Source: Chiloscyllium plagiosum
Lineage: Eukaryota
Direction: 5' to 3'
DNA: 64,000 bases
NCBI RefSeq assembly: GCF_004010195.1
Contig: NC_057718.1
Span: forward strand, 62,445,928-62,509,927
The translations under genes and the position numbers were made by a program. Numbering within the stretch: position 1 is the stretch's first letter; every line of letters begins with the position of its first letter. A model generated the notes under the pieces. It was not told where the DNA came from and did no database searches. It was given only the letters and a program-made list of their open reading frames with translations. Positions 11,521 to 62,539 of this stretch are shown in pieces.

Positions 11521-11553
11521 ACCACTCTCAGCTTTTTAAGTTGCTTCACTCAT

Positions 11554-12803: not shown

Positions 12804-12816
12804 TTGCTTCACTCAT

Positions 12817-17770: not shown

Positions 17771-18029
17771 AGAGATGAACGTCATGATTAAGGTCACATG
17801 ACTATACCAAACCAAGCGGCCCATTAGTACATAGACCAATACAGGCCCTTCGGATCTCGACGTTGTGAAGGCCTTCAATGTAAATTTCTATAGCTAAGTT
17901 TCTGGTCAATGATGGTGGGAAAATTCATTGGTGGTAATTCCATAATGGGGAGATTATCCCCAACTGAAGTGAACTTGATCAAGTTAAAAATCACACAACA
18001 CCAGGTTATAGTCCAACAGGTTCATTTGG

Positions 18030-18615: not shown

Positions 18616-18617
18616 AT

Positions 18618-18637
18618 TGGGGGCCTCGTTCCGGGAT
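18618..18637 (+). promoter_or_regulatory. Primer binding site, tRNA-Pro-like
   Basis: TGGGGGCCTCGTTCCGGGAT resembles the MLV-type tRNA-Pro PBS TGGGGGCTCGTCCGGGAT with two extra bases; it starts 2 nt after the LTR terminal CA. Confidence 0.8.
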
Positions 18638-19621: not shown

Positions 19622-21110
19622 ATGGGAGGCACGGGGAGTTGCCTGGGTAACGATCGATCTGTAAATAATGTTAAAGCGGAATATATTCTGCCCGACAGTC
19701 CTTTGGGGAAAATGTTGGGTAATTGGGAACACAACTCCCGGACGTGGGAGAAAGATAAGGCTACAATGATAAACTATTGTTGTTTCATTTGGACTAGAGA
19801 AAGTATTAAAGCGCCTGGGTTTTTTTTGGCCCAAATATGGGTCCGATGAGGATTGGCTGTGTCAAGATCTTAATATATATGTCAATCGAAAAGAACCGTA
19901 CAGTCAAAAAGAGTCCGATTATGCGGCATGTTGGATAGGGAGCGCGGGAGTAAAATTATGTCCCATGAATACGGAGGAATCGGAAAAAACAATGAAAAAG
20001 GGAAGCCACAATGGGATCCCGTAACGTGTTTGCCGCCCCCATATACTACTCCCCAGAACAAGCCTACAGCTCCCGAAGTAGAACCGACTCCAGACACAGA
20101 AAGGGGAACGGACTCTGAACTAAAAGATGCAGAACCTAGGGTGGCTCAGAAACACTCGAGCCACCACACGTAAAGGAGGGGCAGAGATAATGGAAAATGT
20201 AAAATTATGTCCCTTACGAGACGTTCTGATTGGGGAAGGTACAATCGGATATGTAAACTCTCCTTAACGAGCAGTGAAGTTAGGATCTTTAAAAAGGAAA
20301 TGAAAAGTTTAATAGAGGATCCGGTTGGACTAGCCGAACAATTAGAGCAATCCCTAGGGCCTAATTTATATACCTGGGGAGAACTGATGGCAATTTTAGG
20401 AAGAACGAGGTATGATTAGGAGAGCGGCTTTATAGGAATGGGAAAAAAAGCACCCAGTTGGGGAAGAAGGGGCCCCAGCAGAACAGAAATTCCCAAATGT
20501 TGATCCGCATTGGGAAAATAATGGCAGAGAAGATAGGGAGTCAATGCGAGATCTACGAGAAATGGTAATATTAGGAATTAAAGAGGCGGCACCTAGGTCA
20601 CAAAACTTTGTTAAGGCCTTTGAAGTACGACAAGAGAAGGATGAAACCCCTTCTGCAGTTCTTAAAAGACTCAAGGAGGCCACAAGGAAGTATTCGGGAA
20701 TGGATCCTGATAATCAGATGGCACAGGGACTCTTAAAGGTCCAGTTTGTAACTAAATCATGGCCGGACATACAAAAGAAATTACAGAAATTAGATGGATG
20801 GAGTGAAAGACAGATGGAAGAACTGTTATGTGAGGCACAGAAAGTGTATGTAAAAAGGGAAAACGAGAAGCAGAAACAGAAAGCCAAAATGATAGTGGCG
20901 GCAGTAGAAGAAATAACAAAAAGGAGAATGGGATCAAGGGATAACAGGAAGGGTAGGGGAGGACACTAAAGACAAGGGTCAGATACCCAGGAAAGGAGGC
21001 AACAGGCAGGGTGTCACCATTGCAGGAAAGTGGGGAATTTTAAACAGGAATGCCCGGAATTAGCACGAGAAAGGGAAGCCGTTTCCCTAATGACTTTAGA
21101 TGAAGATTAG
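19622..21110 (+). pseudogene. gag: ERV gag (MA-CA-NC), frameshifted
   Basis: Myristoylation-type start MGGTGS, PPPY late domain (ORF 19928), MHR-like VRQEKDETPSAVLKRL (ORF 20544), degenerate Zn knuckle CHHCRKVGNFKQEC, ending in TAG 21108-21110. Confidence 0.9.
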
Positions 21111-21720
21111 GGGAGTCAGGGGTTCCTTCCTCCTGAGACCCACCGGGAACCCTTGATAAATGTAAAGGTGGGACCTGAAGGGGAGGAGGCAGTATTTTTG
21201 GTGGACACAGGAGCGGCACGATCATCCCTAAGTTTTAGACCTACCGGTGTTAAATTGACCAACAAGAATCTCAGGGTTCCGGAGTAAAAGGCAAGGAATT
21301 CTTGGTGCCTATTTTTGAGCCAACCCTAATTAGAGGAAATGATGAGGAAGTGACAGGACAATTACCAACTGTAGAGTTCAATGATAAGTTTTTAAAGAAC
21401 TATATTGTGGCGCTCGGCTCTTCTTTGTCTGTCCTTAGGATGAAGGGTCTGTTGACCCAGACACCTCCACTTGAGTTCGCAATACATCGGATACGACCAG
21501 GTGATTGGGTCCTGATAAAGACCTGGAAAGATACCAAACTGAACCCAAGCTGGGAGGGACCGTTCCTAACTGACTACTGAAACAGCCATCCGAACTGCTG
21601 AAAAAGGAGTCATCACACTCGTGTTAAGGGCCCCGTGGATGCTCCTTCCCGGTCGGCAGAGTGGCAAGCACATCCTGCAGACAACCCTCTGAAAGTCAAG
21701 CTGAACAAAAAGAATGGACT
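21111..21720 (+). pseudogene. pol: ERV pol remnant: protease joined directly to the integrase C-terminus
   Basis: Protease FLVDTGA (D at 21204), then after ~21350 HRIRPGDWVLIKTWK...PSWEGPF (GPY/F-type IN C-terminus). No RT YXDD, RNase H or IN core. Confidence 0.85.
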
Positions 21721-21847
21721 GAGAAACAGACTATTAAGTATTGGGTAAAAAAAACTGTATCCCAAAACAATTGTAAGTGTTGCATGGACTCACTCCTCCC
21801 TGGTATTTAAAGGGTTAGGGAATAGACAGATAGGGTTGTGAGCTGAA

Positions 21848-23185
21848 ATGAATGGTCAGCTTTATGTTGTCACGATAATATTGGCGCTAGCTGCGAAGGA
21901 GGGTGGGGAAAAAAAAATAATTTTACCACTTTATGTCAGAATTATGCTAAACTAAAGGGGCATACCGACTGTTGGAGTTGGGCGGAGCTCCTATACCATG
22001 GGGAATCCGGAATTCCTCTCACGGTAATACCACTTACCAAAGAAGAAGTGTACGATGTTCAACAATTTGACTCGGGCTCAAATGATACAACTTGGAGATT
22101 TGAAAGGGGTAATTATAACTTTGCGGGATGGTTCCCTCGACCAGCCCCGAAAACTCTGGGTGCTATCGATGGCCTTAGAGTTTCCCCATGAAAGGAGCAG
22201 TAAATACCACTTGCTTCTGTAATCAGAATGATACTGTACCCTTCCGATTAGGAAAATCATCTTGTGTCTACACCAGCCAAGTCACTGCCACAACCATTCC
22301 CCAAATATTAAATGGAACATACCGGGTGGGTGGCTTAAAGGCCTACCCATTTATCCCCGGCGAGAAATACGTTTGGAGTGGCGGATGTAACGGGAATGGG
22401 CGCTGGGACCATCCAGTTCAAACACTGCCTCAAAGCCAGAAAGGATGGAGTGGCTGCTGCTACCTCACCTATATAATTCCCCACTTGAGGCTGTTAAAGA
22501 GAGCCCTAAAAATACCTCGGAATAAACAGGGAGGAAGGCGAGTAACCCGGAAAGTAACCGAAGGAGAATCGCCTCCTCTGGACTTTGATACCTATGCATG
22601 GGACCGCAGGAGCAGGAGTAGAAATACAAAAGTTGGCGGCTTCCCTGGAAGAGTTGGCCAACAATACTGCTGATGTGTTGGCCGAAACCCAATCCCAAGT
22701 AGCAGCCATAACGACCGAAATGATTGCCACTAGACTAACGACTCTTCAGAACAGAATGGCTCTGGATTATATTCTAGCAGAGAAGGGTGGTACCTGTGCA
22801 CTAATTGGAGAGGAATGTTGTACATACATACCTGAGGTCTCCTCTAACATTACTGATTTCTCCAAACATGTGCGAGACACAATCGCCAAGATAAGGGAGG
22901 CCGGTAATCGGTATCGGAACGAAAAAGGATGGGAATGGGGGAAATTGGAGATTGACTGGTTGGGGAAGGTGGTTAGCCAATCTAGCTATCTATGGATTAT
23001 TGATATTAGTGGGTCTGGTGGTAGGGTTCAATGTCCTAAAATGGGTAATGAGCCGACTGATGACATCCCTTGGGGAAGGAACCAAAATAAATCATCAGAT
23101 GCTTTTACAATCAGCAGGTGATATGCAACAAAGAGAAAGTCAAAGAATGCTTCTAGAGTTCAAGAGACGAACAGCACAAATGTAA
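21848..23185 (+). pseudogene. env: ERV env, gamma-type TM, frameshifted
   Basis: Hydrophobic signal after ATG 21848, basic cleavage site RRVTR, immunosuppressive domain LQNRMALDYILAEKGGTC (from 22744), CX6CC (CALIGEECC), membrane anchor in ORF 22952. Confidence 0.9.
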
Positions 23186-23274
23186 AATGTAAGACTGTGA
23201 ACCCCATCGCCAAAAGGAGTAAGAGGGCAGAACATGAGAAAATGACTGAAAGGAGACTTAATAACCCAACAGTT

Positions 23275-23296
23275 AGAGAAAAAGAAAAAGGGGGAA
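23275..23296 (+). promoter_or_regulatory. ERV polypurine tract
   Basis: AGAGAAAAAGAAAAAGGGGGAA directly before the 3' LTR TG. Confidence 0.9.
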
Positions 23297-23297
23297 T

Positions 23298-24154
23298 TGT
23301 GGGAGATTAGAAATGTTGTTTTTGCAGGTGGGGGGNNNNNNNNNNNNNNNNNNNNNNNNNNNNNNNNNNNNNNNNNNNNNNNNNNNNNNNNNNNNNNNNN
23401 NNNNNNNNNNNNNNNNNNNNNNNNNNNNNNNNNNNNNNNNNNNNNNNNNNNNNNNNNNNNNNNNNNNNNNNNNNNNNNNNNNNNNNNNNNNNNNNNNNNN
23501 NNNNNNNNNNNNNNNNNNNNNNNNNNNNNNNNNNNNNNNNNNNNNNNNNNNNNNNNNNNNNNNNNNNNNNNNNNNNNNNNNNNNNNNNNNNNNNNNNNNN
23601 NNNNNNNNNNNNNNNNNNNNNNNNNNNNNNNNNNNNNNNNNNNNNNNNNNNNNGGGGGAAGGGAAGGGGAACATTATACAAACGGTCGTGGAATTCTTGT
23701 AGCATATAGCATACTTAAGGCTAAGACTTTAATGAATATAGAGGGTCTTGTAAAGAAAATAGTTTTAAGCTAGGAAATAACTTTAAAGTGTTGTAGCTGA
23801 CCACAAAAAGAAGCAGTAGGGGCATTTCACAATAAAGCTTATAGTATGATCTGAGAAACTGGATAAAAGAACAAGCTGTAACAAACAAGGAACAAAGAAT
23901 GCAGACAAGGACAGCAGAAGGCCAGATAAGAAAATAACTAGAGAAAAAAAAGTGAGGTAATCGGCTTATGATAGGATGGGAAAAGGGAGGCGTGATTCCG
24001 CAACTTGTAAACTAAATAAGAATGCTAACAGGCTCTGTTTTCGCGCGCATTTCTTATTGATTGCAGAAGTGTCTGGTACTTGCAAGACTGTAATAAATTG
24101 TTCTTGTTTCCAAGGCTTTGTCTCAGGCTGATTGATTTATGAGTGAGTTCTGTT
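23298..24154 (+). repeat. ERV 3' LTR (contains N-gap; terminal TCTCACA missing)
   Basis: Direct repeat of 18030-18615. Confidence 0.9.
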
Positions 24155-24399
24155 GGAAATACTCGTTTTCAGAGCACTGCTCCTTCATCAAGATACAGCT
24201 ACCTGATGAAGGAACAGCGCTACGATCGCTAGTACTTGTTGCGTGATTTTTAACTTTGTCCACCCCAGTCTAAAACCAGCACCTCCACATCACAGTTGTA
24301 GATAGACATTGCCTGCGTAGCACCTGTTTGCTGTTGAAAGTCACTTAATTTAAATGCACCAGGCCTAATGCTCTATTTTCACCAAAGTGAACTTTAAGA

Positions 24400-26293: not shown

Positions 26294-26453
26294 TTCAGGA
26301 GAAAGTGAGGACTGCAGATGCTGGAGATCAGAGTCAAAAAGTGTGGTGCTGGAAAAACACAGCCACTCCAGCTTATGCTGGAAATGTCAACTATCCTGCT
26401 TCTCTGATGCTGCCTGACTGGCTGTGCTTTTTCTGTACCACATTTTTTTGACT
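26294..26453. mobile_element. Short fold-back insertion from a family A Penelope terminus
   Basis: Inverted arms (GTGGTGCTGGAAAAACACAGC / GCTGTGCTTTTTCTGTACCAC); 11-bp direct repeat AATTATGTCCC at 26283-26293 and 26454-26464. Confidence 0.65.
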
Positions 26454-31652: not shown

Positions 31653-31853
31653 TGAGAGAAAGTGAGGGCTGCAGATGCTGGAGATCAGAGCTTAAAATGT
31701 GTTGCTGGAAAAGCGCAGCAAGTCAGGCAGCATCCAAGGAACAGGAGAATCGACGTCTCGGGCATAAGCCCTTCTTCAGGAAACCTTCTGAAGAAAGGCT
31801 TGTGCCCGAGACGTCGATTCTCCTGTTCTTTGGATGCTGCCTGACCTGCTGCG
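31653..31853. mobile_element. Fold-back mini-element (family A) with two inverted hammerhead-like motifs
   Basis: Arms 31712-31781 and 31785-31854 are inverted repeats; 14-bp TSD CTAGAACCAGTCTT at 31639-31652 and 31854-31867. Confidence 0.85.
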
Positions 31854-32639: not shown

Positions 32640-35600
32640 GCAATCTTGGTAATGGTCACATAGCCAAACCATAGCTTTCAGGGAAGTGAAGAAACAACTA
32701 TCATCTAAGGTGATGGCACACCAAGATCCCAAGTGAGATCTAGTATTGACATGTGATGCCTCTCCATACGGGTAGTATTAGCTTATAGGTGGTCCAACAG
32801 AGAGGAATGCACAATAGTGTATGCCTCCAGGACTTTGGCTAATGCAAAGCAAAAATAGGCCCAGTTAGAGAAGGAAGGTTTGGCATCATACTTGGAGTCA
32901 GGAAGTTCCATTACTTATGAATGTAAATTTGTAATAATAATGGATCAGAAGCCCCTGCTAGGTCTAGTGGGAGGCAGCCCAAGGCATCTGCATTTCCACT
33001 TGACCTCCCAGACGGTGTTCAAACTTATAATTGTACAAACTCAGAATAAGAGCTCGTTACTTAATTCAACCTGAAGCTATGGGCGGCACAACCCTATCCT
33101 CTTTACAATATTGGTTGAACTTGCTCACACCAAAGATGACCGCCAAATCTTCCTTCTCTATTGGGTCATATCTTCATTTGGCATAAGCCAAAGTCCAGGA
33201 AGCATAAGCTATTGGGCATTCCTCTTCGCTAGGCCATCGGTGAGCCAATACTATCCCGACACCACATAGGGAGGCATCACAATTCAGCTTCACGTCTTGC
33301 TTGGGAACATAGTGTGCCAACAACTTAGACAAAAGCTGTTTCTTCATTTCTGTAAAGGCTACATCTTGGCTATGAATCTACTTTCAAGGCTGACCCTTTT
33401 TCAACTGTAGTTGTAAAGGTGCCAGGATGAAGGCCCGGTTACATATGACTTTTCCATAATAATTCACCAACCCAAGAAAAGACCTAAGCTGCAGTACAGA
33501 TGTGGGAGCTATTGATCACCCTCATTTTATCTTCCAATGGATGTAACCCAGCTTTATCAACTCTGTAGCCGAAGTTGGTCGCTTGGGATGCCTGGAATAC
33601 ACAATTTTCCCTCCTAAATAGAACACTCACCTTGGAGGACATAGTACTTGAGCATTACAGAACTTGAAATGTTATTTATTGGTCTTCCTGGTTATTAGCA
33701 TGTCATCCAGATAAATGACAACCTGGGATAGACCTTGTAAAGCATTTTCCAACATCTGCTGGAAAATGGCACAGGCTGATAGCATACTTTTAGGAATCCT
33801 TATTAATTGCACTTGCAGGCACACATAGCTTACTTCCAGCTTCATGAAGGACAACACCCCTCCACCAATATTGCATTTATGTCCACTATGCAAGGGATTG
33901 GGTATTTATCCAGCTGCAAGTTTTAGTTTGCTGTTTGTTTTAAATCTCCACAAAGGCAAACCAACCACTCAGGTTTCACAATCTGTATGACTGGTGGTGC
34001 ACACTGGACTTGTTTGATGATTGTTTCACTTTTCAACATACTAATTTCTGTGTCTACTTTTGCACGTACGGCATATGGTACTGGGTGGGCCTTGCAGAAT
34101 CATGGAATTGTTTCTTGGTCAACATGTAAGGTGGCCTTGGCCCCTTTGATAATCACTAGGCCTTCGTGAAAAGTGTACGGGTGTTTGGATATCACTCAGG
34201 CAACCATTTTCTAATTGAAAAAAGTTGAGCCTATCAAGGTGAATCGTTCTCAACCAATTTTGCCCCATTAAGGTTGGGCCTGAGCATTTTACTAAAATCA
34301 GTGGTAACTGAACCGGCTGCTTCTCTTAAGAGACCGGACCCAAAGTTGTATTCTCAATCTGTCAGGCCTAGCCAAGGTCTTATGAAAACTTAAGGGTCGG
34401 AATCCAGTGCAAATTTTGTTAAAGACCAGTTCCACAATCAGTGATTCAGCTGTGTCGGTTTCGATCTTCGTTAGAACTGGGTGATCATTTAAGCTGACAT
34501 TTATTGTAATTAATTCTGATTTAGACTGGTCTATGAGATCTCTTATTTAATTCAGGCCTAGTGAGACTCTCTTGCTGTCTTGATTCCTTATACCGGTAGG
34601 AGAGAGTGAGGACTGCAGATGCTGGAGATCAGAGCTGAAAATGTGTTGCTGGAAAAGCACAGCAGGTCAGGCAGCATCCAAGGAGCAGGAGAATCGATGT
34701 TTCGGGCATGAGCCTTTCTTCAGGAAGGATCTCAAAAACTTGGATCCTCAAAAATTTTAACTGTTTAGCTGAGGCTTGGCTTTGTTTAGGGGCTTTGCTG
34801 TGGACTGACCTGGAGTTCCTGTGTTCAGGATATGTCCTGAGTGAGGCTATGCAATCACCTTTATTAAAGTGGTCTTTCTCAAGCTCAGTCAGACTGGCAA
34901 GGGTGTCCACTTCCATTGGTGTACCCTGTGTTATGAAGGTGTAGAGGTGCTGTATCTTTTAAGAGAGTTGAAAACTAGCAAAACTGCCTGCCACAGCACC
35001 AAGAGTTCTGAACAAGGTAACGATGTAACACATGATCGACACAGATAGTAGCTGGGTTGCCATGAGATAAAAACAAATTCAAATTTGGTCAATCAGTTTA
35101 ATATTAAAACCAATGAAACAATCTGATGTTTTAGGCTACAAAACCAGACATTTTGAACAGCTAGAGAGAGAACTACCAAAAGACCAACACATAGAGGCTG
35201 CTAGCTCAAGAGGTCTCTGAGAGGTACCTGTCTGTGGGGAGTCTGCGCCGCAGAATATCGAAACTGACCTGGAGAGAATCTACAGAGGAGACTCAGCAAA
35301 GCTGACTGGTTTAGAAACATGAATTGTTTTGTAACTCTAAATCGGGATTTTTGTATCTGACAAATATTGTAGATGGGGAGGTAGAAGATAGGTTTAAGAG
35401 AAAGGAGTTGTAAATAATTGTTAGTTTTAATATTCTCTGTTGGACTTAAAGAATAAAGTTGTTAATTTTTATTTATCTCTAGTATAGTTCTTTGCCCCTC
35501 AAAATTTAACAGATTACAGCACGGGGTGAATCTTTTCTGTGTTGTTGGTTTAAATTAGCAGAGGGTTTACCTCATAACACCTGAAAGTCATAAACTCCAC

Positions 35601-39198: not shown

Positions 39199-40121
39199 GT
39201 ACTGTAAGTTACTGTTGTAGTCATCACTAAAGAATATTACATTAAAACGTATCAAATTAACAAATCCAATTGATTGTTGTTGGAATTATTACTTATTTCT
39301 CTTAAGGCTGGAAGCCTGTAAGATTGTTTCAAGGAATTGCTATAAAGCAATCTGACTTCCTTATGTTTAAAGTAACACCATTTATAGAAATTCTTCTTCA
39401 GTTTCCTGGCATAATTTTAGTTTGGGTCACATATAACAATGAAAATTTCTGATTGCTGTTTTCTAATAATAAATCTAATATTGGTTTCTTAATAGATTTT
39501 TTTGACAAAACATTAATAAGATGTATTACTTTATTTTTACTGTTAAAAATCACACAACACCACTTTATAGTCCAACAGGCTTATTTGGAAGCATTAGCTT
39601 TTGGAGTGCTGCTCCTTCAACAGGTGGTCGTGAAGTATAGGATCGTAAGACACAGAATTTATTGCAAATGTTTACAGTGTGATGCAACTGAAATTATATA
39701 TTGTTTGTTAAGTCTCTCATGTTTTAGAATGACTGTGTTAGTTTCAGTTCTTTCATATGTAAATCCCAAGCCTTATTTTTTGAAGTTACATTCTCAAGTG
39801 AACTTTAACAATAGATGCCATGTTAGCCAAGATAATGCACTGAGGTGTGAGGTGCCTTGTGCGAGGCTATCTGTGCCCCAATGTTCAGACTGATTCTATT
39901 TCTAAAAAAGGGATTTAAAGAATTTTACATGGATTCATGCAGTTTTACAGCAAAGTAAAATGTAATTCTGCAAGTACAAATTCACCTCACAAATTTGTGT
40001 GTGTGTATGTGTATGTGCGCGTGTAAAGGGGTATACGTCTGTGAGAGGGTGTGTGTGAGAGAGTGAGTGTATATGTGTGAATGTATGAGAGCGTCTGCGT
40101 GAGTGTATGGGTCTGTAGGAA

Positions 40122-40158
<37 letters not shown>

Positions 40159-40266
40159 AGTGCAGTGGGGTCACCTGTCGTGTGACATGAACCCAAGGTC
40201 CCATGGGGATGGCCTCAACTGGGACCTTGGTTTCATGTCACACTATAGGTGACCCCACTGCACTAT

Positions 40267-40490
40267 GTTAAAAATCACACAACACCAGGTTATAGTCCAA
40301 CAGATTTAATTGGAAGCACACTAGCTTTCGGAGCGACGCTCCTTAATCAGGTGATGAAGGATCACCTGATGAAGGAGCGTTGCTCCGAAAGCTAGTGTGC
40401 TTCCAATTAAACCTGTTGGACTATAACCTGGTGTTGTGTGATTTTTAACTTTGTACACCCCAGTCCAACACCGGCATCTCCGAATCATGA
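40267..40490. mobile_element. Nested fold-back mini-element (family B) with two inverted hammerhead motifs
   Basis: Arms 40267-40355 and 40361-40449; 12-bp TSD CCACTGCACTAT at 40255-40266 and 40491-40502. Confidence 0.88.
40363..40397 (+). ncRNA. Minimal type-I hammerhead ribozyme motif (family B)
   Basis: CAC-CTGATGA-A-GGAGC-gtt-GCTCC-GAAA-GC-TA-GTG: stem I CAC/GTG, 5-bp stem II, palindromic AGCT stem III, CUA triplet. Confidence 0.82.
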
Positions 40491-41589
40491 CCACTGCACT
40501 ATACACACATACACACACAAGTTTGTGGGGTGAATTTGTACTTGCAGAATTACATTTTATTTTGCTCAAGAACTGCATGAATCAATGTAAGATTCTGTAA
40601 ATCCCTTTTTTTAGAAATAGAATCAGTCTTAACATTGGGGTACATGCAGCCTCCCACAGAGCACCTCACACCTTCAGTGTATTATCTCAGCAGACATGGC
40701 ACCTGTTGTTAACGTTCACTTAAGAATGTAACTTTTTTAAAAAAGGTCTGAGATTTACATAAGAAAGAACTGAAACTAACATGGTCATTCTAAAAAATGA
40801 GACTTTACAAACATTGCAGGTCTTTTTCAATATACAATTTCAGTTGCATCACACTGTGCATGTTTGCTATAGATTCTGTGTCTTATGATCTTATACTCCA
40901 CCTGATACTCCATCCGATCTTATACAACCACCTGATGAAGGAGCAGTGCACTAAAAGCTAGTGCTTCCAAATAAACTTGTTGGATCATAACCTAGTGTTG
41001 TGTGCTTTTTAACTTGGTAATTCAGCACCTCCAAATCTTTACTTTTTACATTATCGAAAATCTTTAGTCTGAAAGATATAATTTAAATAGTCATGCAAAA
41101 TTAATTAAAAGCTAATTTCTTAATGGCATCTGGCCTTCATATGGGAAATAGCAAAAGATTATCATAAAAGGGAGATGTATTTGCAGAATGCTTATCTTGA
41201 TTTCGATGTTCCTTGAAATATTTTTCACTTTAGGTCCTAATGACGACAGTTTTCATCATCTTGATTACAATAGTACTTTAACATTTCCATCATTTTGGAA
41301 ACACACTGCTCCATTCTGCAAACATCTGGAGTACGGTATTCAGTTTGGTCACTGAATCTCAGGAAAGATGTATTTGTCTTGGATGAAGTGCAGAAAAGTT
41401 CAGCATGGATGATAATGGGGCTTAACGAGTGTTACGAATGCAACTTACGTTCCCTTGAATATGAAGGATTGAGGGCGATGTGATCCAAATGGTTAAAATA
41501 TTAAAATTAATTGATGAGAGATGTAGAGAAATTATTTTGTCTAGTGGAGGAATCCAGACTATGGAGGATATAATTATAAAATTTAATTA

Positions 41590-43180
41590 GGAGAAAGTGA
41601 GGACTGCAGATGCTGGAGTACCAGAGTTGAAAAATGTGGTACTGGAAAAACACAGCAGGCCAGGCAGCATCCAAGGACCAGGAGAATCGACGTTTCGGGC
41701 ACAAGCCCTTCAGGAATGAGGCTGGTGTACCAAGCGGGCTGAGATAAAAGGTAGGGGAGAGGGAATTTGGGGGAGGGGCGCTGGGAATACAATAGGTGGA
41801 AGGAGATGAGGGTGAGGGTGATAGGCCGGAGAGGGAGTGGGGGCGGAGAGGTCGGAAAGAAGATTGCAGGTCAAGAGGGCGGTGCTGAATCTGAGAGTTG
41901 GGACTGAGATAAGGTGGGAGGAGGGGAAATGAGCGGCACCACATGGACCCCAGCTATGCCTGCCTCTTCGTTGGATATGTGGAACAGTCCATCTTCCGCA
42001 GCTACACTGGCACCACCCCCCACCTTTTCCTCCANNNNNNNNNNNNNNNNNNNNNNNNNNNNNNNNNNNNNNNNNNNNNNNNNNNNNNNNNNNNNNNNNN
42101 NNNNNNNNNNNNNNNNNNNNNNNNNNNNNNNNNNNNNNNNNNNNNNNNNNNNNNNNNNNNNNNNNNNNNNNNNNNNNNNNNNNNNNNNNNNNNNNNNNNN
42201 NNNNNNNNNNNNNNNNNNNNNNNNNNNNNNNNNNNNNNNNNNNNNNNNNNNNNNNNNNNNNNNNNNNNNNNNNNNNNNNNNNNNNNNNNNNNNNNNNNNN
42301 NNNNNNNNNNNNNNNNNNNNNNNNNNNNNNNNNNNNNNNNNNNNNAACCAGGACAGAACCCCACTGGTCCTCACCTTCCACCCCACCAACCTCCGGATAC
42401 ATCGTATCATCCTCCGTCATTTCCGCCACCTCCAAACAGACCCCACCACCAGGGATATATTTCCCTCTCCATCCTTATCATCATTCAGGAGAGACCACTC
42501 CCTCCGCGACTCCCTCATCAAGTCCACACCCACTACTAACCCAACCTCCACTCCCGGCACCTTTCCCTGCAACTGCAAGAAGTGCAAAACCTGCGCCCAC
42601 ACCTCCCCCCTCACCTCCCTCCAAGGCCCCAATGGATCCTTCTATATCCGTCGCAAATTCACTTGCACCTCCACACACATCATTTATTGTATCTGCTGCA
42701 CCCGATGTGGTCTCCTCTACATTGGGGAGACAGGCCGCCTACTTGCGGAACGTTTCAGGGAACACCTCTGGGACACCCGCACCAACCAACCCAACCGCCC
42801 CGTGGCTGAACTCTTTAGCTCCCCCTCCCACTCTGCCAATGACATGCAAGTCCTTGGCCTCCTCCATCGCCAGACCCCGGCTACATGACGCCTGGAGGAA
42901 GAGCGCCTCATCTTCTGCCTAGGAACCCTCCAACCACACGGGATGAATGTAGATTTCAGCAGCTTCCTCATTTCCCCTCCCCCCACCTTATCTCAGTCCC
43001 AACCCTCGGATTCAGCACCGCCCCACAGCCGTAGTTATGTGACTGGCCAGGACTTTTATCCCAGCCCACTTGGCACACCAGCCTCATTCCCGAAGAAGGG
43101 TTTATGCTCGAAACGTCGATTCTCCTGGTCCTTGGATGCTGCCTGGCCTGCTGTGTTTTTCCAGCATCACATTTTTCAAC
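41590..43180 (+). mobile_element. Penelope-like element (family A) with GIY-YIG endonuclease region and an inverted terminal arm
   Basis: CKKCKTC..FTCTSTHIIYCICCTRCGLLYIGETGRLLAERFREH (ORF 41914); RT motif M.PSYACLFVGYVE; termini are inverted repeats. Spans an N-gap. Confidence 0.9.
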
Positions 43181-43468
43181 TAAGATTTGAATTAGGCCAT
43201 TTAAAGTGAAATTAGGAGCAGCTTTTGCACACAACTTATTATAAATCTGGAAACCTCCATCCAAAAGAGTATAGATGCTAAGATGAATGAAGCTTGCAAG
43301 ACAGAGAATAAAAATTGTTAACTGAAGGTATGGAAATGTATAAAGTGTCCATGAGTCTACTGGAAGAGCAGATTAGACTTGAGCTGCAATAAATATTCCT
43401 ATTCCTTGTGACCGGCATTATAAGTCTAACTTTGTGAATAATGACTGGTTGCTGAAATTATTAATTAT

Positions 43469-43890
43469 TGTGGTTCTGTTCGCCGAGCTGGAAGTTTTTG
43501 TTGCAAACATTTCGTCCCCTGTCTAGGTGACATCCTCCGTGCTTGGGAGCCTCCTGTGAAGCGCTTCTGTGGTGTTTCCTCCGGCATTTATAGTGGCCTG
43601 TCCCTGCCGCTTCCGGTTGTCAGTTTCAGCTGTCCGCTGTAGTGGCCGGTATATTGGGTCCAGGTCGATGTGTTTGTTGATGGATTTTGTGGATGAGTGC
43701 CATGCTTCTAGGAATTCCTGGCTGTTCTTTGTTTGGCTTGCCCTATATAGTGTTGTCCCAGTCGAATTCATGTTGCTTGTTGTCTGCGTGTGTGTAGACA
43801 GGGGACGAAACGTTTGCACAAAACCTTCCAGCTCGGCGAACAGAACCACAACAACGAGCACCCGAGCTACAAATCTTCATCCAAACTTTG
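43469..43890. mobile_element. Fold-back Penelope terminal fragment (family C)
   Basis: Matches 11554-11880 and 12715-12803; flanked by ATTATTAATTAT / ATTATCAATTAT. Confidence 0.8.
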
Positions 43891-45989
43891 ATTATCAATT
43901 ATGTTTCTTGAATGCCTCAATAAAACTGTTTACAGCCTGCACAATTTATCTATACTTCTCTGGAAAAAAAATATATATGTGAGGTAGATGATGACATGTT
44001 AGTTTTTGAGTTTGAGATTATGCTGATAAATTATTTGACAAGTATTTCTTACAGACAGAGGTCACTTGAATTCTCATTATCATAACATCTATAGTATTTC
44101 ACGCAGTAGAAACATCTGGAAATGGGGGCCACAGTTTTATTATTATTATTTTGAGTTGACTGCATCCTTCTGTCAAAGGATATTGCACTCTTGTGAAAAT
44201 TGTATGTACTATTTAAAGTTCAGAATTTACTTTCATAGCCCTGAAGAAATGTTGTTGGAGCCACAATATTTTATTTCCTAAGTGTCTGGTAATTCTAATG
44301 TCCAAGGCTTGTTATTTCAAAAAATATAATGGTGGTCATTATATAGGCAAAAAGGAAGAATCTGGCCTCTGCATCTTAATTAAACTTTTTGAACTGAAAT
44401 TTTATTTTGCATTTACACATAGTTATTTTAGCTTGCTATATTGCTAATTCTAACCATGATAGTTCTGCAGTTTCAAGGAAATAATGCTTGGCAGGGACTA
44501 AACCCTTAAGTTTTGATTGTTTTCAAGAGTGTAAAAAGTGATTTGCCAATAGTAGTAAACCTTCTCTTGTGCAGAGATGTTTCCATTGGTAGGGAAATCT
44601 CAAACTAGGAGACATAGTTACAGAATAGGAGGATGATCATTTAAAACTGCTATGCAAATGAATCTCTTTCTGCTCGAGGATAGGGAATGTTTGTAACGTT
44701 CTACCCCAAAAGGTTGTGGAGGCTAGAGATAGCTATCAGCTCCCCAGTATTTCAAAAATATGTGACGAACTGGCATGAAAGAGAAGTTGAGGCCTGAGAC
44801 TGATCAGCCATGATCTTTACAGGTTGGTGGGGCAGGCTTGAGAGACCTACTACTCTTCTTATTTCTTGTGTTTTTATGAGAACATGCAAAGTTCTGTTTA
44901 GCAGCTTGCATTTGGATGGTTTGGAAGGTAGGAGTGGAGAGCAGAAAGTGGAGCAGCTTGCTTTTTAAGTTTGTAAGCAATTTTATTTTTAAGCTGTATA
45001 TTCCAAACTGTGATTAATACGCTTTTGGACACTTAAGGGCATAAAAATATTTGAGGATAGGGAAAATGAAGTTGCATTAGCTGATCAGCAATAGTGTTAA
45101 ATGGTAAAACAGACTGGAGGAGTCACATAACCTAACTCTGTTCTTACTTCTAGTGGTGTTAAGCAGAATTACATAGCCACATGGATTGCAATACGTCAAG
45201 AGGTGTGTCACCACTTCCTTTTCTATAGAACCAAATAAAGGACAATAAATGACTTGACAGGCACATTCCATGAATGAACAAATAAAATAATTTTAAAATC
45301 AAGTTACAACTTGACCAATATTTATTTTAAGAATGGGACTACAAGAAGGGAGCATATAGAGTTCCTTCAAGTTCTTTCAGTTTTGATTAGCAGACATTGA
45401 CTTGAGTAAACATACTCAACTCAAATAACTTGATCTCAATATTTCAGAATTTGAAGTGGAGTTTGTGACATTCCAACATATAAGAGAGGCAGAGAGATTT
45501 GTGTAATCAAACTGCTGAGAGTGAGTTGACAATGTGAATGGAAGAAGTGGTGACTATGTGCAGCTCAGAGCAAGATTCTAAGACCTGATTTCTGTGAGAA
45601 TGTTCTGACACTGGAGAAGAGGCACCAAAATGACTTGGGAGGGAATGAAACTTGGAAATTCAATTATATAATTGTTAATAACAGGATTTCATACTTGCAA
45701 GGATGGTATTTGTGATTGGGTTCAAACTGAGAATCTAAAATATCTTACCAAGGTGTAGGGATAACTAAAAGGGAAGAAGAGCAACTACTCTGGGAGTGCT
45801 TAAGAAGGGAAATTGCATCTGATCAGGAAGGACCTAATTTATTGACATTGAAAATTGAGATATAAAGTTTCATTTTAAAGTGACAAGCAAAGAAGGCAAA
45901 CAAAAGAAAGTAAGAGTAGTCAGAAAACGCAAGTAAACTGTAAGAACGAATGAATGTTTTTTGAGTTATGAATATGGTAGTTATAGTGA

Positions 45990-46252
45990 TGATGTGGAGG
46001 TGCTGGGTTGGAGTTGTGTGAACAAAGTAAAAAATTACACAATACCAGGTTATATTCAAACAGGTCTATTTGGAAATACAAGCTTTCAGAGCACTGCTCC
46101 TTTGTCAGGTAGCTAGTGGGGCAGGATCATAGGACACAGGTTTATAGTAAAAAGTTCTGCTCCACTAGCTATCTGACGAAGGAGCAGCGCTCTGAAGCTT
46201 GTACTTCCAAATAAATCTGTTGGACTATAACCTGGTGTTGTATGAGTTTTAA
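45990..46252. mobile_element. Fold-back mini-element (family B), degraded hammerhead pair
   Basis: Inverted arms 46030-46120 and 46163-46252; same consensus as 40267-40490. Confidence 0.75.
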
Positions 46253-48997
46253 TATCGTTTCAGTGTGCAGAGAGAAGAGGAGAAAATGTGAGAGTGACGA
46301 ATTGTAAGCAGGGAAAATGTTTTGTGTGTGAGAAAGGACTTATGGAAATTAGAAGGAATTGTCACAAAACAGATTCATTATAATAGAAAGCTGGATGCAA
46401 ACTGCAAAGTGTGGGTAAAAACACATATGCCCAGGATTTCCTGTTGGGAGTACAATTAGAATGTCGATTTGTGAATGCCAATTTTAACAATGCAGATTTA
46501 TTTTAGCATTTCCAGTGAAACTAATTACACTAAATGAAAGTGTAGGAAAATGAGATTTGCATTCCAGCCATTAAATAAATTCTGAGATTATGTATATTTT
46601 TTAAGAATAGCCAAATGTAGTATTTCTTTAACATTCATCCAAAATTAACTTGAGGGTTTGCTTTTTATGGTTCTCCAGTTTAATGCTTTGTGATTTCTTT
46701 TAATTTTGTGATTATTCAACAGTTAGAGACCTTCTAAAATTCCACAGTTCAACACAATCTCTTTTAGCTATTTTCCTAAAGTCTGTGATCAATCTGTAAT
46801 ATCACTGATCAGAACACATGTCTGTCTCTATAAAATATCGTATGGATTATTATGATAAAGAAGAATTGGGCAGTCAAATTTAGCTATTATTACTTCATAC
46901 TGAGAAAACATTGCAGCTAAAGCTGTAAATCATTGACAATTAAATCAGAAGAAATAGTTTTGAGGTGTTCCAAATTCTTTATACAGGAAAATGAACATTT
47001 TTTAAAAAAGTGCAGTGAGAAGAAAACGTGATCTATGAGCATTTGCAGTTTAATAATGTACTTGGATTTTGAAATAATAGAAAATGACAAATGGCTTTTG
47101 ATTAATTTGGAGCTTCAAATTAATTTCTAAGTTACAACTTCAGTGATGGATGTTAAATGAGACCAATGGATTAAATCTTTTTCTTTTCTTCAGTTGCCTT
47201 TAATATGCAAAGGCTTGAGGTAAATTTGTTGCAGCTGAAACTTTATTGCTGGAACAGCACAGCAGGTCAGGCAGCATCTAGGGAACAGAAGATTCGACGT
47301 TTCGGGCACATGCCCTTCTTTGTTGCAGCCCACCATATGAATATGAAGTGATCTACATTTTACTGAAAGTCACTTTTGTAGAGTGTAGGGGTCAGAAAAA
47401 CAATGGTTTATTTCCTATCATGAACATATTTTGTTAATTCAGCTTCAAAGTAGCTACCTAGCAACACTTCATTTATTTGTTCAGTGAGTACATCGAAATC
47501 TGCTGTGTGCTAAATTGGCTATATTGTTTTCTTGGTTTTAAATATGCATATTTACTTGTTACAAATATTTTTTAATTATCAACGCCCCCTGCCAAATTTA
47601 TTTCTCAATACATTGAAAAAATGCCCAAAAACATTGCAATTCAGACAGTTGTAATGACATTTGTGTACCAGTTTCATTGAAGAGATCTCAAAACTAAATG
47701 ATGAGAATGGACAGAAAAGTTTGTTTACAAATTTACACCTATTCTGAACTGCAAAAGTGAAGGAAATGTGATTTGTACATTTTTTTGTTTTTAGATCAGA
47801 AGCTCAAAGTTATGCTTTTGAGTCATTGAGAGTCCAGGAGAAGGCTTTTGGAGAACTGAGGCAAAAAAACCCAAAAGATTCAGTGTGACTCAAATTTCCT
47901 TCATTTTTTACATTAAAACATTGTGCCATAATTTGGATAGAAATTAACCAGGCCTTCCAAACCTTAATACTTTCTAACAGTAAACAGAATAGATAAGAAT
48001 CGAATAAACAGGAAATTCTGGGAAAACACAGCAAGTCTACTGGCATCAGATGAGAGAAAACGTGATTTAATGTTTCATGCCTGTGATCTTTCATCAGAAT
48101 TACAGTTTTTCTCTTCACAGATGCTGCCAATTCTGCTATGTATTTCCAATATTGTTTTTATGTTAGACTTTTACCATCCCCAATATTTTTGTTGGAAAGA
48201 AACCAAAATTGATGGTGGAACATGTACATTGTATAGAAGTCTAATGTACACGCAATTAAATATACCCAATTAATAGAATTTAATTACATTACAGACTCCC
48301 AATTGTGGGAGGGAAATAGAAGAGGAAATGTGTAGACATCAACAAAATAAATAGGAATAATTTAGAATAATTAGATTTTAATTCAATGATTGACTAAGAG
48401 AGAGAAGAATGAAAGTAGTAAAAAGGAAATCCTACAACGTTCATTCTTTTAAGGAATATTATTACATGTTTACATAGGTAGAGACATTGCTTGATCAGTT
48501 TAGAGTGAAAAAGTAAATCAACTAGATCACGAAATGTGTGAGTACTATTGAATTTATTTTAAGCATTAAAGCAAGTGTACCAGATTGCTGTGGGGCAGAA
48601 TTTAGGAAGGAATCTGGTCATGATGAGGTCAGAAAAGAAAAAAACTTGACATTAGGGACTGATAGATCAACAGTTATTGAAAAAGAAATAGCAAAGATTC
48701 AGCTGAAATAGGTACCATAAAAAAAGAGTTTAATATTTCAAGATACTGTCCTAAATAAATGTTAGAAACTAACAAAATTGGAGAAAATGGCAAGTGGGTC
48801 TTTCTGGGATGATAGTAGTGTCCAAACTTCTGTAGAGGGAGGAAGAGAGCTTCTTCAAGGAAGGCATCCTTGTAAGAGGATTCGCAGTAGGTTGAAATCT
48901 TTGAGGACAAAGTGAGGTCTGCAGATGCTGGAGATCAGAGCTGGAAATGTGTTGCTGGAAAAGCGCAGCAGGTCAGGCAGCATCCAGGGAACAGGAG

Positions 48998-49033
48998 AAT
49001 CGACGTTTCGGGCATAAGCCCTTCTTCAGGAAT
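48998..49033 (-). ncRNA. Minimal hammerhead ribozyme motif (family A), intact core
   Basis: Reverse complement reads ATTC-CTGAAGA-A-GGGC-ttat-GCCC-GAAA-CG-TC-GATT. Confidence 0.72.
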
Positions 49034-49920
49034 GGGGAAAGTTTGTCCAGCAGGCTAAGATAAAAGGTAGGGAGGAGGGACATGGGGGAGGGGCGTCGGA
49101 AATGTGATAGGGGGAAAGAGGTCAAGGTGAGGGTGATAGGTCAGACGGGAGTGGGGGCGGAGAGGTCGGGAAGAAGATCTCAGGTTAGGAAGGCGGTGCT
49201 GAATTCGATGGATTTGACTGAGACAAGGTAGGGGGAGGGGAAATGAGGGAACTGGTGAAATCCGAGTTCATCCCTGGTGGTTGGAGGGCTCCTAGGCGGA
49301 AGATAAGGCGTTCTTCCTCCAACCGTCGTTTTGTTGTGGTCTGACGATGGAGGAGTCCAAAGACCTGCATATCCTTGGTGGAGTGGGAGGGGGAATTGAA
49401 ATGTTGAGCCACAGGATGGTTGGGTTGGTTGGTCCGGGTGTCCCAGAGGTGTTCTCTGAAACGCTCCGCAAGTAGCCGGCCTGTCTCCCCAACATAGAGG
49501 AGGCCACATCGGGTGCAGAGGATGCAATAGATGATATGTGTGGAGGTACAGGTGAATCTGTGGCAGATATGGAAGTTTCCTTTGGGGCCTTGGAGGGAGG
49601 TGAGGGGGGAGGTGTGGGCGCAAGTCTTGCACCTACGGCGGTGGCGGGGGAAGGGGCCGGGAGTGGAGGTTGGGTTGGTGGCGGGTGTGGANNNNNNNNN
49701 NNNNNNNNNNNNNNNNNNNNNNNNNNNNNNNNNNNNNNNNNNNNNNNNNNNNNNNNNNNNGCCTTCCTAACCTGAGATCTTCTTCCCGACCTCTCCGCCC
49801 CACCCCAGTCTGACCTATCACCCTCACCTTGACCTCTTTCCACCTATCACATTTCCGACGCCACTCTCCCAAGTCCCTCCTCCCTACCTTTTATCTTAGC
49901 CTGCTGGACAAACTTTCCCC

Positions 49921-49956
49921 ATTCCTGAAGAAGGGCTTATGCCCGAAACGTCGATT
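49921..49956 (+). ncRNA. Minimal hammerhead ribozyme motif (family A), intact core
   Basis: ATTC-CTGAAGA-A-GGGC-ttat-GCCC-GAAA-CG-TC-GATT; GUC triplet, palindromic ACGT stem III, weak stem I. Confidence 0.72.
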
Positions 49957-50779
49957 CTCCTGTTCCCTGGATGCTGCCTGACCTGCTGCGCTTTTCCAGC
50001 AACACATTTCCAGCTCCAAACCTCTGAGTCAGGATACTCGGATTCAAGTCGCACTTGGCTCCAGATGTGTGTCATAATATCTCTGCAACAGGTTGATGAG
50101 AAAAAAGCTCTGGGAACACTAAAATTAGAAAAGGTTTATGGAGGAATATGAGGAACAGATCTCAAATAGAAAGCCTAGCTGTTAACTTTTATTGTACAAA
50201 TATGCCAGTCAGAATTGCTAAAAGTAAGATGGGACCTTTAAGGAGACTGCAGGAAGTAGACAATAGATGAAAATTGGTGAGTTACCTCAGTTAGAGTATT
50301 TTTATGACACAGAAGCAGGCATTTCGGTCCATCAACACTGTGCCAGCTTTCCAGAGCAATCCAATTAATCAGATACCTGGGCTCCATTAACATAACCATG
50401 CAAGATTACTTCTTTTATAGCAATTTACTATTGATCACCTGCTTTGCAGCAATTTCCAGGTCATCACTACGTCCTGCGTAAACCATTTCTTCCTTGCATC
50501 TTTTCTGCATCTCTTGTCCAAAGTTTAAAGTATGCATCTCCCAGTCTTGTACCTTCAGCTAACAGGAGCAGCTTTTCCTGGTCTACCATATCCAAGTTGT
50601 TAACTCTCACCTCCATCCCCTTTACTACATTGAGAATAAGTCCGGTATCTGCAACTTAGCCTTTCAACTAAAATCCCTCATTCTTTTAATATTTCCTGTC
50701 ATTCTTTTCAAGACACAACAATCATGTTGTGGTCAAAGCAGACTTGTTAAAAGTTCAACATAACTTTCCTGGTTTTGGT

Positions 50780-59479: not shown

Positions 59480-61415
59480 TTTTTTAATCGAATGTTTGAC
59501 GTCGGTGGTGGGCAAGTTGTTGGAGGGAATCCTGAGTGTCAGGATGTACATGTATTTGGAAAGGCAAGGACTAACTAGGGACAGTCAACATGGCTTTGTG
59601 TGTGGGAAATCATATCTCACAAACTTGATTGAGTTTTTTGAAGAAGTAACAAAGAGGATTGATGAGGGTAGAGCAGTAGATGAGATCTATATGGACTTCA
59701 GTAAGGTGTTTGACAAGGTTCCCCATGGGAGACTGATTAGCAAGGTTAGATCTCACGGAATACAGGGAGAACCAACAATTTGGATACAGAACTGGCTCAA
59801 AGGTAGAAGACAGAGGGTGGTGGTGGAAAGTTGTTTTTCAGACTGGAGGCCTGTGACCAGTGGAGTGCCACAAGGATCAGTGCTGGGTCCTCTACTTTTT
59901 GTCAATTACATAAATAATTTGGATGCGTGCATAAGAGGTACAGTTAGTAAGTTTGCAGATGACACCAAAATTGGAGGTGTAGTGGACAGCAAAGAGGATT
60001 ATTTCAGTTCAAAGTTTGTGCGAAGATTTGTAGCTCGGGTGCTCGTTGCTGTGGTTCTGTTCGCTGAGCTGGAAGTTTTTGTTGCAAACGTTTCGTCCCC
60101 TGGCTTGGCGACATCATCAGTGCTTGGGAGCCTCCTGCGAAGCGCTTCTTTGATGTTTCCTCCGGTGTTTATAGTGGCCTGTCCCTGCCGCTTCCGGTTG
60201 TCAGTTTCAGCTGTCAGTTTCAGCCATGATTATATTGAATGGTGGTGCAGGCTCGAAGGGCNNNNNNNNNNNNNNNNNNNNNNNNNNNNNNNNNNNNNNN
60301 NNNNNNNNNNNNNNNNNNNNNNNNNNNNNNNNNNNNNNNNNNNNNNNNNNNNNNNNNNNNNNNNNNNNNNNNNNNNNNNNNNNNNNNNNNNNNNNNNNNN
60401 NNNNNNNNNNNNNNNNNNNNNNNNNNNNNNNNNNNNNNNNNNNNNNNNNNNNNNNNNNNNNNNNNNNNNNNNNNNNNNNNNNNNNNNNNNNNNNNNNNNN
60501 NNNNNNNNNNNNNNNNNNNNNNNNNNNNNNNNNNNNNNNNNNNNNNNNNNNNNNNNNNNNNNNNNNNNNNNNNNNNNNNNNNNNNNNNNNNNNNNNNNNN
60601 NNNNNNNNNNNNNNNNNNNNNNNNNNNNNNNNNNNNNNNNNNNNNNNNNNNNNNNNNNNNNNNNNNNNNNNNNNNNNNNNNNNNNNNNNNNNNNNNNNNN
60701 NNNNNNNNNNNNNNNNNNNNNNNNNNNNNNNNNNNNNNNNNNNNNNNNNNNTTCACAACATCCTTCCTATCTGAAAGATGTTGTGAAACTTGAAAGGGTT
60801 CAGAAAAGATTTACAAGGATGCTGCCAGGGTTGGAGGATTTGAGCTACAGGGAGAGGCTGAACAGGCTGAGGCTGTTTTCCCTGGAGCGTTGGAGGCTAA
60901 GACTTTATAGAGGTTTACAAAATTATGAGGGGCATGGATAGGGTAAATAGGTACAGTCTTTTCCCTGGGGTGAGGGAGTCCAGAACTAGAGGGCATAGGT
61001 TTAGGGTGAGAGGGGAAAGATATAAAAGAGACCTATGGGGCAACTTTTTAATGCAGTGGGTGGTACGTCTATGGAATGAGCTGCCAGAGGAAGTGGTGGA
61101 GGCTGGTACAATAGCAACATTTAAGAGGCATTTGGATAGGTATATGAATAGGAAGGGTTTGGAGAGATATGGGTCAGGTACTGGCAGGTGAGACTAGATT
61201 GGGTTGGAATATCTGGTCGGCATGGATGGATTGGACTGAAGACAAAAGTGAGGACTGCAGATGCTGGAAACCAGAGTTTAGATCAAAGTGGTGCTGGAAA
61301 AGCACAGCAGGTTAGGCAGCATCCGAGGAGCAGGAAAATCGACGCAAAAGCCCTTCATCAGGAATAGAGGGGTCTGTTTCCATGCTGTACATGTCTATGA
61401 CTCTATTACTCTAAC
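59480..61415 (+). mobile_element. CR1 LINE RT and 3' UTR, interrupted by Penelope fragments (60007-60215, 61240-61368) and an N-gap
   Basis: SQHGF..YMDFSKVFDKVPH..GVPQGSVLGP..FADDTK; 3' tail TCTATGACTCTAT. Confidence 0.9.
60084..60123 (-). ncRNA. Minimal hammerhead ribozyme motif (family C), intact core
   Basis: Reverse complement GCA-CTGATGA-T-GTCGCC..GGGGAC-GAAA-CG-TT-TGC. Confidence 0.75.
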
Positions 61416-62539
61416 TGACTGTTGAAAGTTTATCTGTTTTCGCATTCTGACTTGTGTTTTCCCTCTCATCAGCACAATATTAACATCTAACTAATAATAA
61501 AACATAAGATAAATATAGGATTATTAAAAATTGATCTTTTAAAAAGTAAGCCAAGTGACATTAATGAGTTAATATACCTTTTGTTTTAACTTTTCAGAAT
61601 ATGAGATTCAGAAGCAACTTGAGATACGGCAGTAATTGGTTTAACTTGGTAACTTGTCCTTCTTTACCACAATTGCCACCACTGTCATAAATATAAAATT
61701 ACACAAATTTAACTTTTGCATTTTGTCCCCAGCATTTTGCAAAATAATTTTGGAAAAACTGCCAAGTAAAATTTTAAGTTTACTCAAAAATTCCAGTTAA
61801 ATGGTGCAGATGCATCTGGAAAATAGTACACTTTCCATATGCTCCGGCTTCAAGATCATGCTTTAGATAATAGTTGCACTATGAGAAGAACTATTAATCA
61901 TTGATCGATATCTTTGGAGCTTCAGAAATCTTTAAGTAATACCGTAAAACTGACAAAATACATATAAGAAATAATTGTTGAAAGTAATTTAAGTTACAGC
62001 ATTTTTCCATGCCAGTGTTTTTATAAATTGTACCCTGTTTAATTTCTTAAAGGTAAAATGTCAGCATATGCAAAGCCTAAATGAATGTTATAACAAAGAG
62101 ACATATGTTGAAGATTACCTGTGATAGCTTAACAGCATTCTAGTTTTAGCAGAACTTTGCTTACATTTGACTCCATGTCTTTTACTTTTCTGAGCTGTGT
62201 AGGTGCATATCATGGAACCTAGGATCCCATGTTTAAAATGTAAACCTATGTTCCTAAATGTTTGAATGCTATTTTAGCTGTATATACATTAGATCTTGTT
62301 GGTCACATATCTGTGGCAATAATGCTAATATAATGATTTTGAAAGCTTCAGGTTCATGGTGTTTTAAACAAGATAACCTACCTAATTGTTTAAAAAAAAC
62401 ATAAATGAAGCTTGGGCTTCAATCATCAGGTTGTCAGGTCTACCAGCTGAATGTACACTGTAGCTAAAATATGAACATCTTTCTTGCCACCACCAAAGCC
62501 CCCGCCCTCTGCCTTCCCCAGTCTAATTGTTACTTATAA

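Follow-up and report, generated by a model that had tools for sequence, protein, structure and literature searches.

Insertions of Penelope-like elements (PLEs) are heavily 5'-truncated and often carry an adjacent inverted copy, itself 5'-truncated, together with a tail of 30-40 bp; non-autonomous PLEs also exist (PMC8557442). In rotifers, PLEs contain an inverted pLTR, a 31-bp tail and target-site duplications (TSDs) of 8-10 bp, self-priming has been suggested on the basis of palindromes at their junctions, and pLTRs are also able to work in trans, on captured DNA (PMC3846280). The inverted terminal repeats of PLEs differ in size between copies (PMC2377424). Pairs of minimal hammerheads (min-HHR) on opposite strands, 100-700 bp apart, were described as probably truncated PLEs, and the end of the intron in the D. 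virilis Penelope maps at helix I (PMC4209133). The PAc protein nicks and extends both target strands and begins reverse transcription at two internal sites, one at each boundary of the tail; its template is uncut RNA, it is predicted to form a dimer, no difference in start site was seen between the strands, and cleavage of its RNA is abolished by a change at G8 (PMC11167929). Metazoan retrozymes are tandem repeats of the same sense (PMC7229834; 10.64898/2026.07.22.740005).

We analysed a stretch of 64,000 nt of Chiloscyllium plagiosum DNA (the window), in which a short fold-back at 40255-40502 (the insert) carries a hammerhead motif on each strand. A first-pass annotation had taken it for a mini-retroelement of its own kind. 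Our analysis indicates that it is very probably an endonuclease-positive (EN+) PLE fold-back of stub length, extremely 5'-truncated and dead on arrival, which was inserted into an older copy of its own family. Because published PLE anatomy comprises an inverted pLTR, a pLTR, a tail and a TSD, every structural feature that had been annotated is already known from PLEs.

The insert, its host and neighbouring fold-backs

The features of the insert and of the related units are summarized in Table 1. The annotated arms, 5-nt loop and tail of about 40 nt were recovered, with three mismatches between the arms (at 40304, 40335 and 40345). The TSD, CCACTGCACTAT, was found to be exact at 40255 and 40491, as had been claimed, and does not occur again on either strand of the window. 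Its score of 12 was reached by none of 288 usable random position pairs in the same search, the best of which scored 10 (300 pairs were drawn, and 12 were dropped for N). N-runs are absent between 23653 and 42035, so that no gap is involved at the insert, in agreement with the first-pass annotation. The insert is thus a young (3/89 arm mismatches), clean and gap-free record of one insertion event. The 41-nt tail is unpaired and present at one end only, and therefore the insert does not have terminal inverted repeats at both ends. The letters of the GAAGG centre duplicate part of the sense hammerhead core, from which it looks like a short templated insertion via TGAT microhomology. Folding of the insert RNA yielded -160.7 kcal/mol (z -26), and none of 200 shuffled sequences was equally stable. 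The Rfam matches over the insert were MIR845_1, mir-875 and MIR7996, all below their gathering scores; these miRNA-type matches reflect the hairpin shape.

Table 1. Features of the insert, its host element and other fold-backs of the window.
Feature	Position	Strand	Remarks
Left TSD	40255-40266	+	12 nt
Inverted tail-less pLTR arm	40267-40355	-	89 nt; outer end is the conserved pLTR end point
Centre (loop)	40356-40360	no strand	GAAGG, 5 nt, sequence read directly
Sense pLTR arm	40361-40449	+	89 nt; begins 5 nt ahead of the hammerhead core
AC-rich PLE tail	40450-40490	+	41 nt; bounded by two family end points
Right TSD	40491-40502	+	12 nt
Predicted minimal type I hammerhead, intact core	40363-40397	+	motif search and pair check
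Predicted minimal type I hammerhead, broken core	40319-40353	-	CTGATTA, G8>U at 40345
Poly(A) signal module	40406-40447	+	ATTAAA hexamer, cleavage at 40423-26, GT-rich stretch downstream
Host fold-back, left tail-less arm	39542-40203	-	about 660 nt, long microsatellite stretch
Host fold-back, remainder	40204-41036	+	16-nt centre, right arm split by the insert, tail remnant
Older relative, unequal arms	45989-46253	-	tail on left; inner ends -52 or beyond, and -16, from core
Third relative, outer half of inverted arm	17981-18029	-	split by ERV-like insertion
Third relative, rest	24153-24293	+	inner inverted arm, differing centre, sense arm with internal deletion, tail
Second-family short fold-back	31653-31853		exact 14-nt TSD; turns at the 5' edge of the hammerhead
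Fold-back, tail-less arm extending further upstream	26297-26453		16-nt TSD, 1 mismatch
Fold-back, tail-less arm extending further upstream	43465-43890		12-nt TSD, 1 mismatch
Young third-family insertion	11549-12806		outer and inner inversion, RT-like remnant, 13-nt TSD, internal N-gap
Second-family long fold-backs with GIY-YIG remnants	41585-43190, 48900-50016		assembly gap mid-element in both

The insert had been described as nested in a fold-back of about 1.5 kb of the same family, and this holds: the host extends from 39542 to about 41035, and a degenerate hammerhead lies near 40929-40963. The target site is inside the host element, directly past a stop codon and ahead of a CA microsatellite. 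The host arms are identical at 404 of 469 aligned positions, and the insert arms share 84-87% identity with them and 80-87% with relatives, versus 97% with each other. By these comparisons, the host fold-back is an older relative. The target sequence occurs only once in the host left arm, and the sequence directly following it there differs. Also in the host left arm, about 145 nt of microsatellite-like sequence (40014-40159) are missing from the right arm beside 40503.

Two similar units that had been proposed are indeed present, at 45989-46253 and at 17981-18029/24153-24293, but their centres differ from that of the insert and their TSDs are not significant, as the TSD search for these two units and for the host returned only background-level scores. 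Each of the four insert-family units in the window has a centre of its own. In all four, the inverted arm has its outer end at one fixed position, the inner family end point. The third unit is split by an ERV-like insertion, in line with the annotation. This ERV-like insertion (18030-24154, about 6 kb) has two LTR-like direct repeats with 91% identity and matches to Gag_p30 and TLV_coat; the second repeat contains an N-gap and ends a few bases short of the first, and TTGG is found on both sides. An AG resembling a 3' splice site is located 4 nt ahead of the hammerhead core at 46112-46116 (minus strand) and at 24196-24200. It is preceded by a pyrimidine-rich run at 46112-46116 and is missing from the insert and the host.

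No RT/GIY-YIG ORF was tied to the insert family, of which just 16 codons are left at the host centre. The corresponding 16-residue peptide ahead of the stop codon has a weak likeness to the GIY-YIG C-terminus: a C-terminal profile placed it 9th among 65,756 windows, and its pairwise scores were not above those of shuffled sequences.

Two further hammerhead families in the window have the same fold-back form and exact TSDs of 13-14 nt. Over both families, TSDs of 14, 13, 12 (one mismatch) and 16 nt (one mismatch) were found, and TSDs were weak in two more units. Gaps in the middle of the two long second-family fold-backs are expected where inverted repeats break a short-read assembly. The relatives of the GIY-YIG remnants in the second family are proteins of 800-900 residues with RT and GIY-YIG domains; both domains were present in all four of the proteins scanned out of 150 matches, several domain matches being below the curated cut-off of Pfam. 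A Pfam search of six fragments returned nothing for three of them and a weak unrelated match for one. Large inverted repeat pairs were also noticed at 60761-63659 and 32659-33374. The former was considered as a PLE unit and discounted, as the TSD search found none; this repeat pair reads as LINE-like coding sequence.

Hammerhead motifs, family RNAs and junctions in related genomes

The claim of one hammerhead motif per strand, the plus copy intact and the minus copy with CTGATTA, was reproduced by a motif search and a pair check, which also identified the change in the minus core as G8>U. The plus motif consists of a 3-bp stem I, CUGAUGA with one extra A, a 5-bp stem II and a palindromic AGCU, and its predicted cut is after A40394. 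Because Rfam reported no hammerhead family over the insert, the ribozyme call relies on our own motif search and on the published description of the minimal hammerhead, with which the architecture of the plus motif agrees (PMC4209133).

The two hammerheads are encoded on opposite strands, and therefore no single RNA contains both. In a transcript of the whole unit the plus motif is buried in the 89-bp stem, and its formation was computed to cost +57.5 kcal/mol. Together, the opposite orientation, the lost G8 of the minus core and the buried plus motif lead to the prediction that the insert cannot process itself in the fashion of a retrozyme. In the explanation that we favour, both hammerheads came along as passengers when uncut RNA was copied and would serve no function in the insert.

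Sequence reads were used to characterize family RNAs and junctions. Four of 24 listed runs were aligned to 40205-40565 at 85% likeness, namely three DNA contig sets from three organisms and one RNA run, a raw poly(A) single-cell library from one sample. The best run holds just 65% of the sampled words, and thus the runs are probably derived from relatives and not from this genome. No RNA run was listed as containing the sampled words, which has no bearing on expression.

In the RNA run, 898 of 2,841 aligned reads (413 + 485) end in an A-run at 40423 or 40426. These positions are 12-15 nt past the hexamer at 40406-11 and ahead of the GT-rich stretch, and in the DNA 3 of the next 20 nt are A. 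The hexamer is ATTAAA in the insert and AATAAA in many relatives (a 40407 T>A variant in the reads). Family RNAs are polyadenylated about 30 nt beyond the uncut ribozyme. About 1,000 reads over the hammerhead extend upstream into the element body (563 and 451 loose ends), and 563 of them go on upstream of 40361 with other letters, those of the family body. The read depth is steady over the predicted cut site (1,325, 1,349 and 1,481). This lack of a fall in depth shows that uncut, polyadenylated family RNAs exist, the share of cut RNA being beyond this library. The reads include several sequence variants, which suggests that several loci contribute, with the reservation that one run of one sample can contain duplicates, and the polyadenylated RNAs may be host transcripts that end in dispersed copies. 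In a literature search, no poly(A) site was found described for the pLTR of a PLE; the two mentions of polyadenylation in one review concern another ribozyme.

The depth at the loop relative to the adjacent arm bin was 0.33, 0.31 and 0.16% in the three DNA runs, which are probable relatives and in which contig depth does not equal copy number. In the RNA run, 8-11 reads were present at 40356-59 versus about 1,230 at 40361-73, i.e. less than 1%. The search yielded 634 different joints, and the 15 listed were heterogeneous, most of them with approximate positions, as the letters between the two sides are not given. Of these 15, 13 lead from the left arm into the right arm, each at a place of its own and in 1-3 contigs per run; one connects the left arm to the tail, and one involves a change of strand. 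The joint expected for an empty site (40266 to 40503) was absent among the 15 of 634 joints listed. In all three DNA runs, loose ends pile up at 40450-54 (319-748 contigs per row) and at 40481-88 (419-904 contigs per row), and the flanks beyond both points are AT-rich with low agreement (0.34-0.41). These positions are two family end points, which enclose the tail.

In a few contigs that span the centre, the geometry of the insert is preserved, with a loop of the same or nearly the same length; one of them has 14 differences in 99 nt and no gap. Small deletions at 40356-60 were found in 1-5 contigs per row, and the turning point recurs with varied letters, so that a small old family is possible. 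In the window and the three DNA runs of relatives, we did not find many copies with one junction, which would characterize a MITE-like family; a burst confined to Chiloscyllium plagiosum itself may be compatible with these data. An initial exact-pattern scan of metagenome contigs gave no match, and a scan with an exact 20-nt pattern gave one match each in metagenome and genome contigs, both of which were rejected as the likeness ends with the pattern.

Formation of the mirror arm

The non-coding, hammerhead-bearing and TSD-flanked insert had been attributed to retro-insertion by a Penelope RT/GIY-YIG protein, and by analogy this is still the most likely origin. Target-primed reverse transcription would be the route of mobilisation, as comparison with PAc suggests (PMC11167929).

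For the mirror arm, twin priming is the explanation that we favour with moderate confidence. A PLE protein would nick both target strands 12 nt apart and thereby generate the TSD; the TSD is seen at the insert, and two-strand nicking is known from another PLE in vitro. From one nick, reverse transcription would begin at the outer of the two internal start sites and give rise to the tailed arm; from the other, it would begin about 40 nt further inward, at the inner site, and give rise to the tail-less inverted arm. Both cDNAs would halt 5 nt ahead of the hammerhead core at a recurrent stop, which may be the 5' end of the RNA or a stop of the RT. Repair would then join the cDNA ends via microhomology with a templated patch of 5 nt, so that the mirror half would be made afresh at each insertion. 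Among the fold-backs of the window, the longer arm is the tail-less one at 43465-43890 and 26297-26445 and the tailed one at 45989-46253. As either arm may be the longer, two separate cDNAs fit better than the snap-back of one. However, later deletions could likewise yield unequal arms, and both arms of the insert end at the very same base, which snap-back explains equally well. In a literature search that covered mostly papers outside subscription, no PLE paper using the term 'twin priming' was found.

Twin priming can be extended to a run-off model that includes the poly(A) site, which we offer as a whole only tentatively. In this model, mini fold-backs would be short products inherent to the PLE cycle. 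Transcripts would start a few bases ahead of the hammerhead, and the poly(A) site, about 30 nt past the ribozyme, would remove the two RT start sites of the 3' pLTR. A PLE protein dimer would thus prime both strands mostly on the 5' copy and run off after about 90 and 130 nt. If the model is true, palindromes of near-fixed size should be recurrent, full-length copies should need poly(A) read-through, and scattered stubs should provide host transcripts with poly(A) signals throughout shark genomes.

In a second explanation, which leaves the PLE identity unchanged, the mirror arm arose when one cDNA, or an antisense template, snapped back and primed itself. Self-priming has been proposed for rotifer Penelopes from junction palindromes (PMC3846280), and it agrees with the insert arms ending at the same base and carrying the same variant letters (97% mutual identity, versus 80-87% to relatives). 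We nevertheless consider it rather unlikely: the fixed outer end of the inverted arm in four of four units would require a second priming or cutting event, and two units of other families in the window have upstream sequence in the tail-less arm but not in the tailed one.

The inner ends of the arms could also fit a third explanation, namely that not a full PLE mRNA but a hammerhead-headed RNA with a length of about 130 nt, a non-autonomous SINE-like module, served as the template, the palindrome still being made at insertion. The inner ends are within -8 to +3 of the hammerhead core in 10 of 27 arms from three families, and both insert arms stop at -5. Of 16 arms that end within 60 nt of the core, 10 end at the 5' edge of the hammerhead (binomial 4e-7); counted per insertion, it is 7 of 13 ends within 60 nt (9e-5). 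The window of -8 to +3 was picked after the data had been seen, and two offsets were read by eye. In contrast, 11 of the 27 arms extend more than 60 nt upstream of the core, and roughly 1,000 RNA reads over the hammerhead run upstream into the element body. Moreover, a structural stop of the RT or a splice junction could produce the same cluster, the D. virilis intron end at helix I being a precedent for splicing (PMC4209133). We therefore regard a dedicated short template as doubtful.

The first-pass annotation had interpreted the insert as a distinct 'MITE-shaped retrozyme', i.e. a palindromic mini-element with a fixed junction, transcribed as one unit and then inserted anew in trans. The neat symmetry, the young age and the exact TSD would be in line with this reading, as would the few contigs in other genomes that turn at the same point. 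In addition, pLTRs are able to act on captured DNA in trans (PMC3846280), and non-autonomous PLEs are known (PMC8557442). However, the four units of the window have four different centres, the loop has less than 0.4% of the arm depth in three of three DNA runs and less than 1% in the RNA run, and its letters vary among the few contigs that cross the centre. The two hammerheads are on opposite strands, one without G8 and the other at the energetic cost given above, whereas metazoan retrozymes are same-sense tandems (PMC7229834). The annotation had itself proposed a comparison of junctions, with junctions that vary from copy to copy arguing for ordinary truncated insertions. We performed it with the window and the runs of probable relatives, and the junctions differed, largely as foreseen for that case. 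A distinct mini-element is thus very improbable. The RNA run, in which 8-11 reads cross the centre, is a poly(A) single-cell library, which is blind to circular RNA. Practically no weight is given to an assembly artefact or a hairpin duplication after insertion: the assembly has gaps, and three other fold-backs of the window contain N-runs, but there is no gap at the insert, its arms differ at three positions, a single TSD brackets the whole unit, and fold-back joints are also present in independent runs.

Among the very many dead PLE stubs, the insert is an ordinary one. It is of use as a record of how the PLE inverted arm is formed. Outer ends that are fixed, arm lengths that vary independently and inner ends that cluster yield a twin-priming prediction that is testable in the existing in vitro PLE system. 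The poly(A) site within the pLTR could matter for the annotation of 3' ends in cartilaginous fish. Had the retrozyme reading held, the insert would have represented a novel type of non-autonomous element with ribozymes; the data argue against this.

Comparison with described systems

MITEs are small, have inverted repeats and are flanked by a TSD, and these features are common to the insert. Unlike MITEs, the insert has a one-sided tail, its family has unfixed centres, and its ends are those of a retroelement.

With non-LTR retrozymes, the insert shares its small size, the lack of coding sequence, the type I hammerhead and the relation to the PLE pLTR (PMC7229834, 10.64898/2026.07.22.740005). 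Retrozymes are head-to-tail tandems with same-sense hammerheads that excise a circular RNA of unit length (PMC7229834), whereas the insert is a single head-to-head unit with motifs on opposite strands, one core mutated and the other, by computation, buried.

The plus motif has the short stem I, the extra nucleotide ahead of stem II, the G10.1-C11.1 pair and the palindromic stem III positions of the minimal hammerheads, for which pairs on opposite strands were noted in Schistosoma (PMC4209133). Those pairs are 100-700 bp apart, whereas the predicted cores of the insert, at 40350 and 40366, are separated by a few bases.

Like Poseidon PAc of Anolis carolinensis, the insert family has two end points around an AC-rich tail, AT-rich targets and a hammerhead that was presumably copied from uncut RNA (PMC11167929). 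Unlike in PAc, the frame from the ATG within the hammerhead core closes after 8 codons in the plus copy of the insert, and a poly(A) site is located between hammerhead and tail; the parts of the PAc study consulted contain no model for the inverted arm (PMC11167929).

The closest agreement is with the units of EN+ PLEs. The insert has their inverted pLTR in head-to-head orientation, their tail on one side only (41 nt), a minimal type I hammerhead and a short TSD of variable length, and it shares with them variable arm lengths and insertion into another PLE copy (PMC3846280, PMC8557442, PMC2377424). It differs in being cut down to 130 and 89 nt with no coding sequence, and the TSDs of the insert and of the neighbouring families are 12-14 nt long, compared to 8-10 in a rotifer PLE (PMC3846280).
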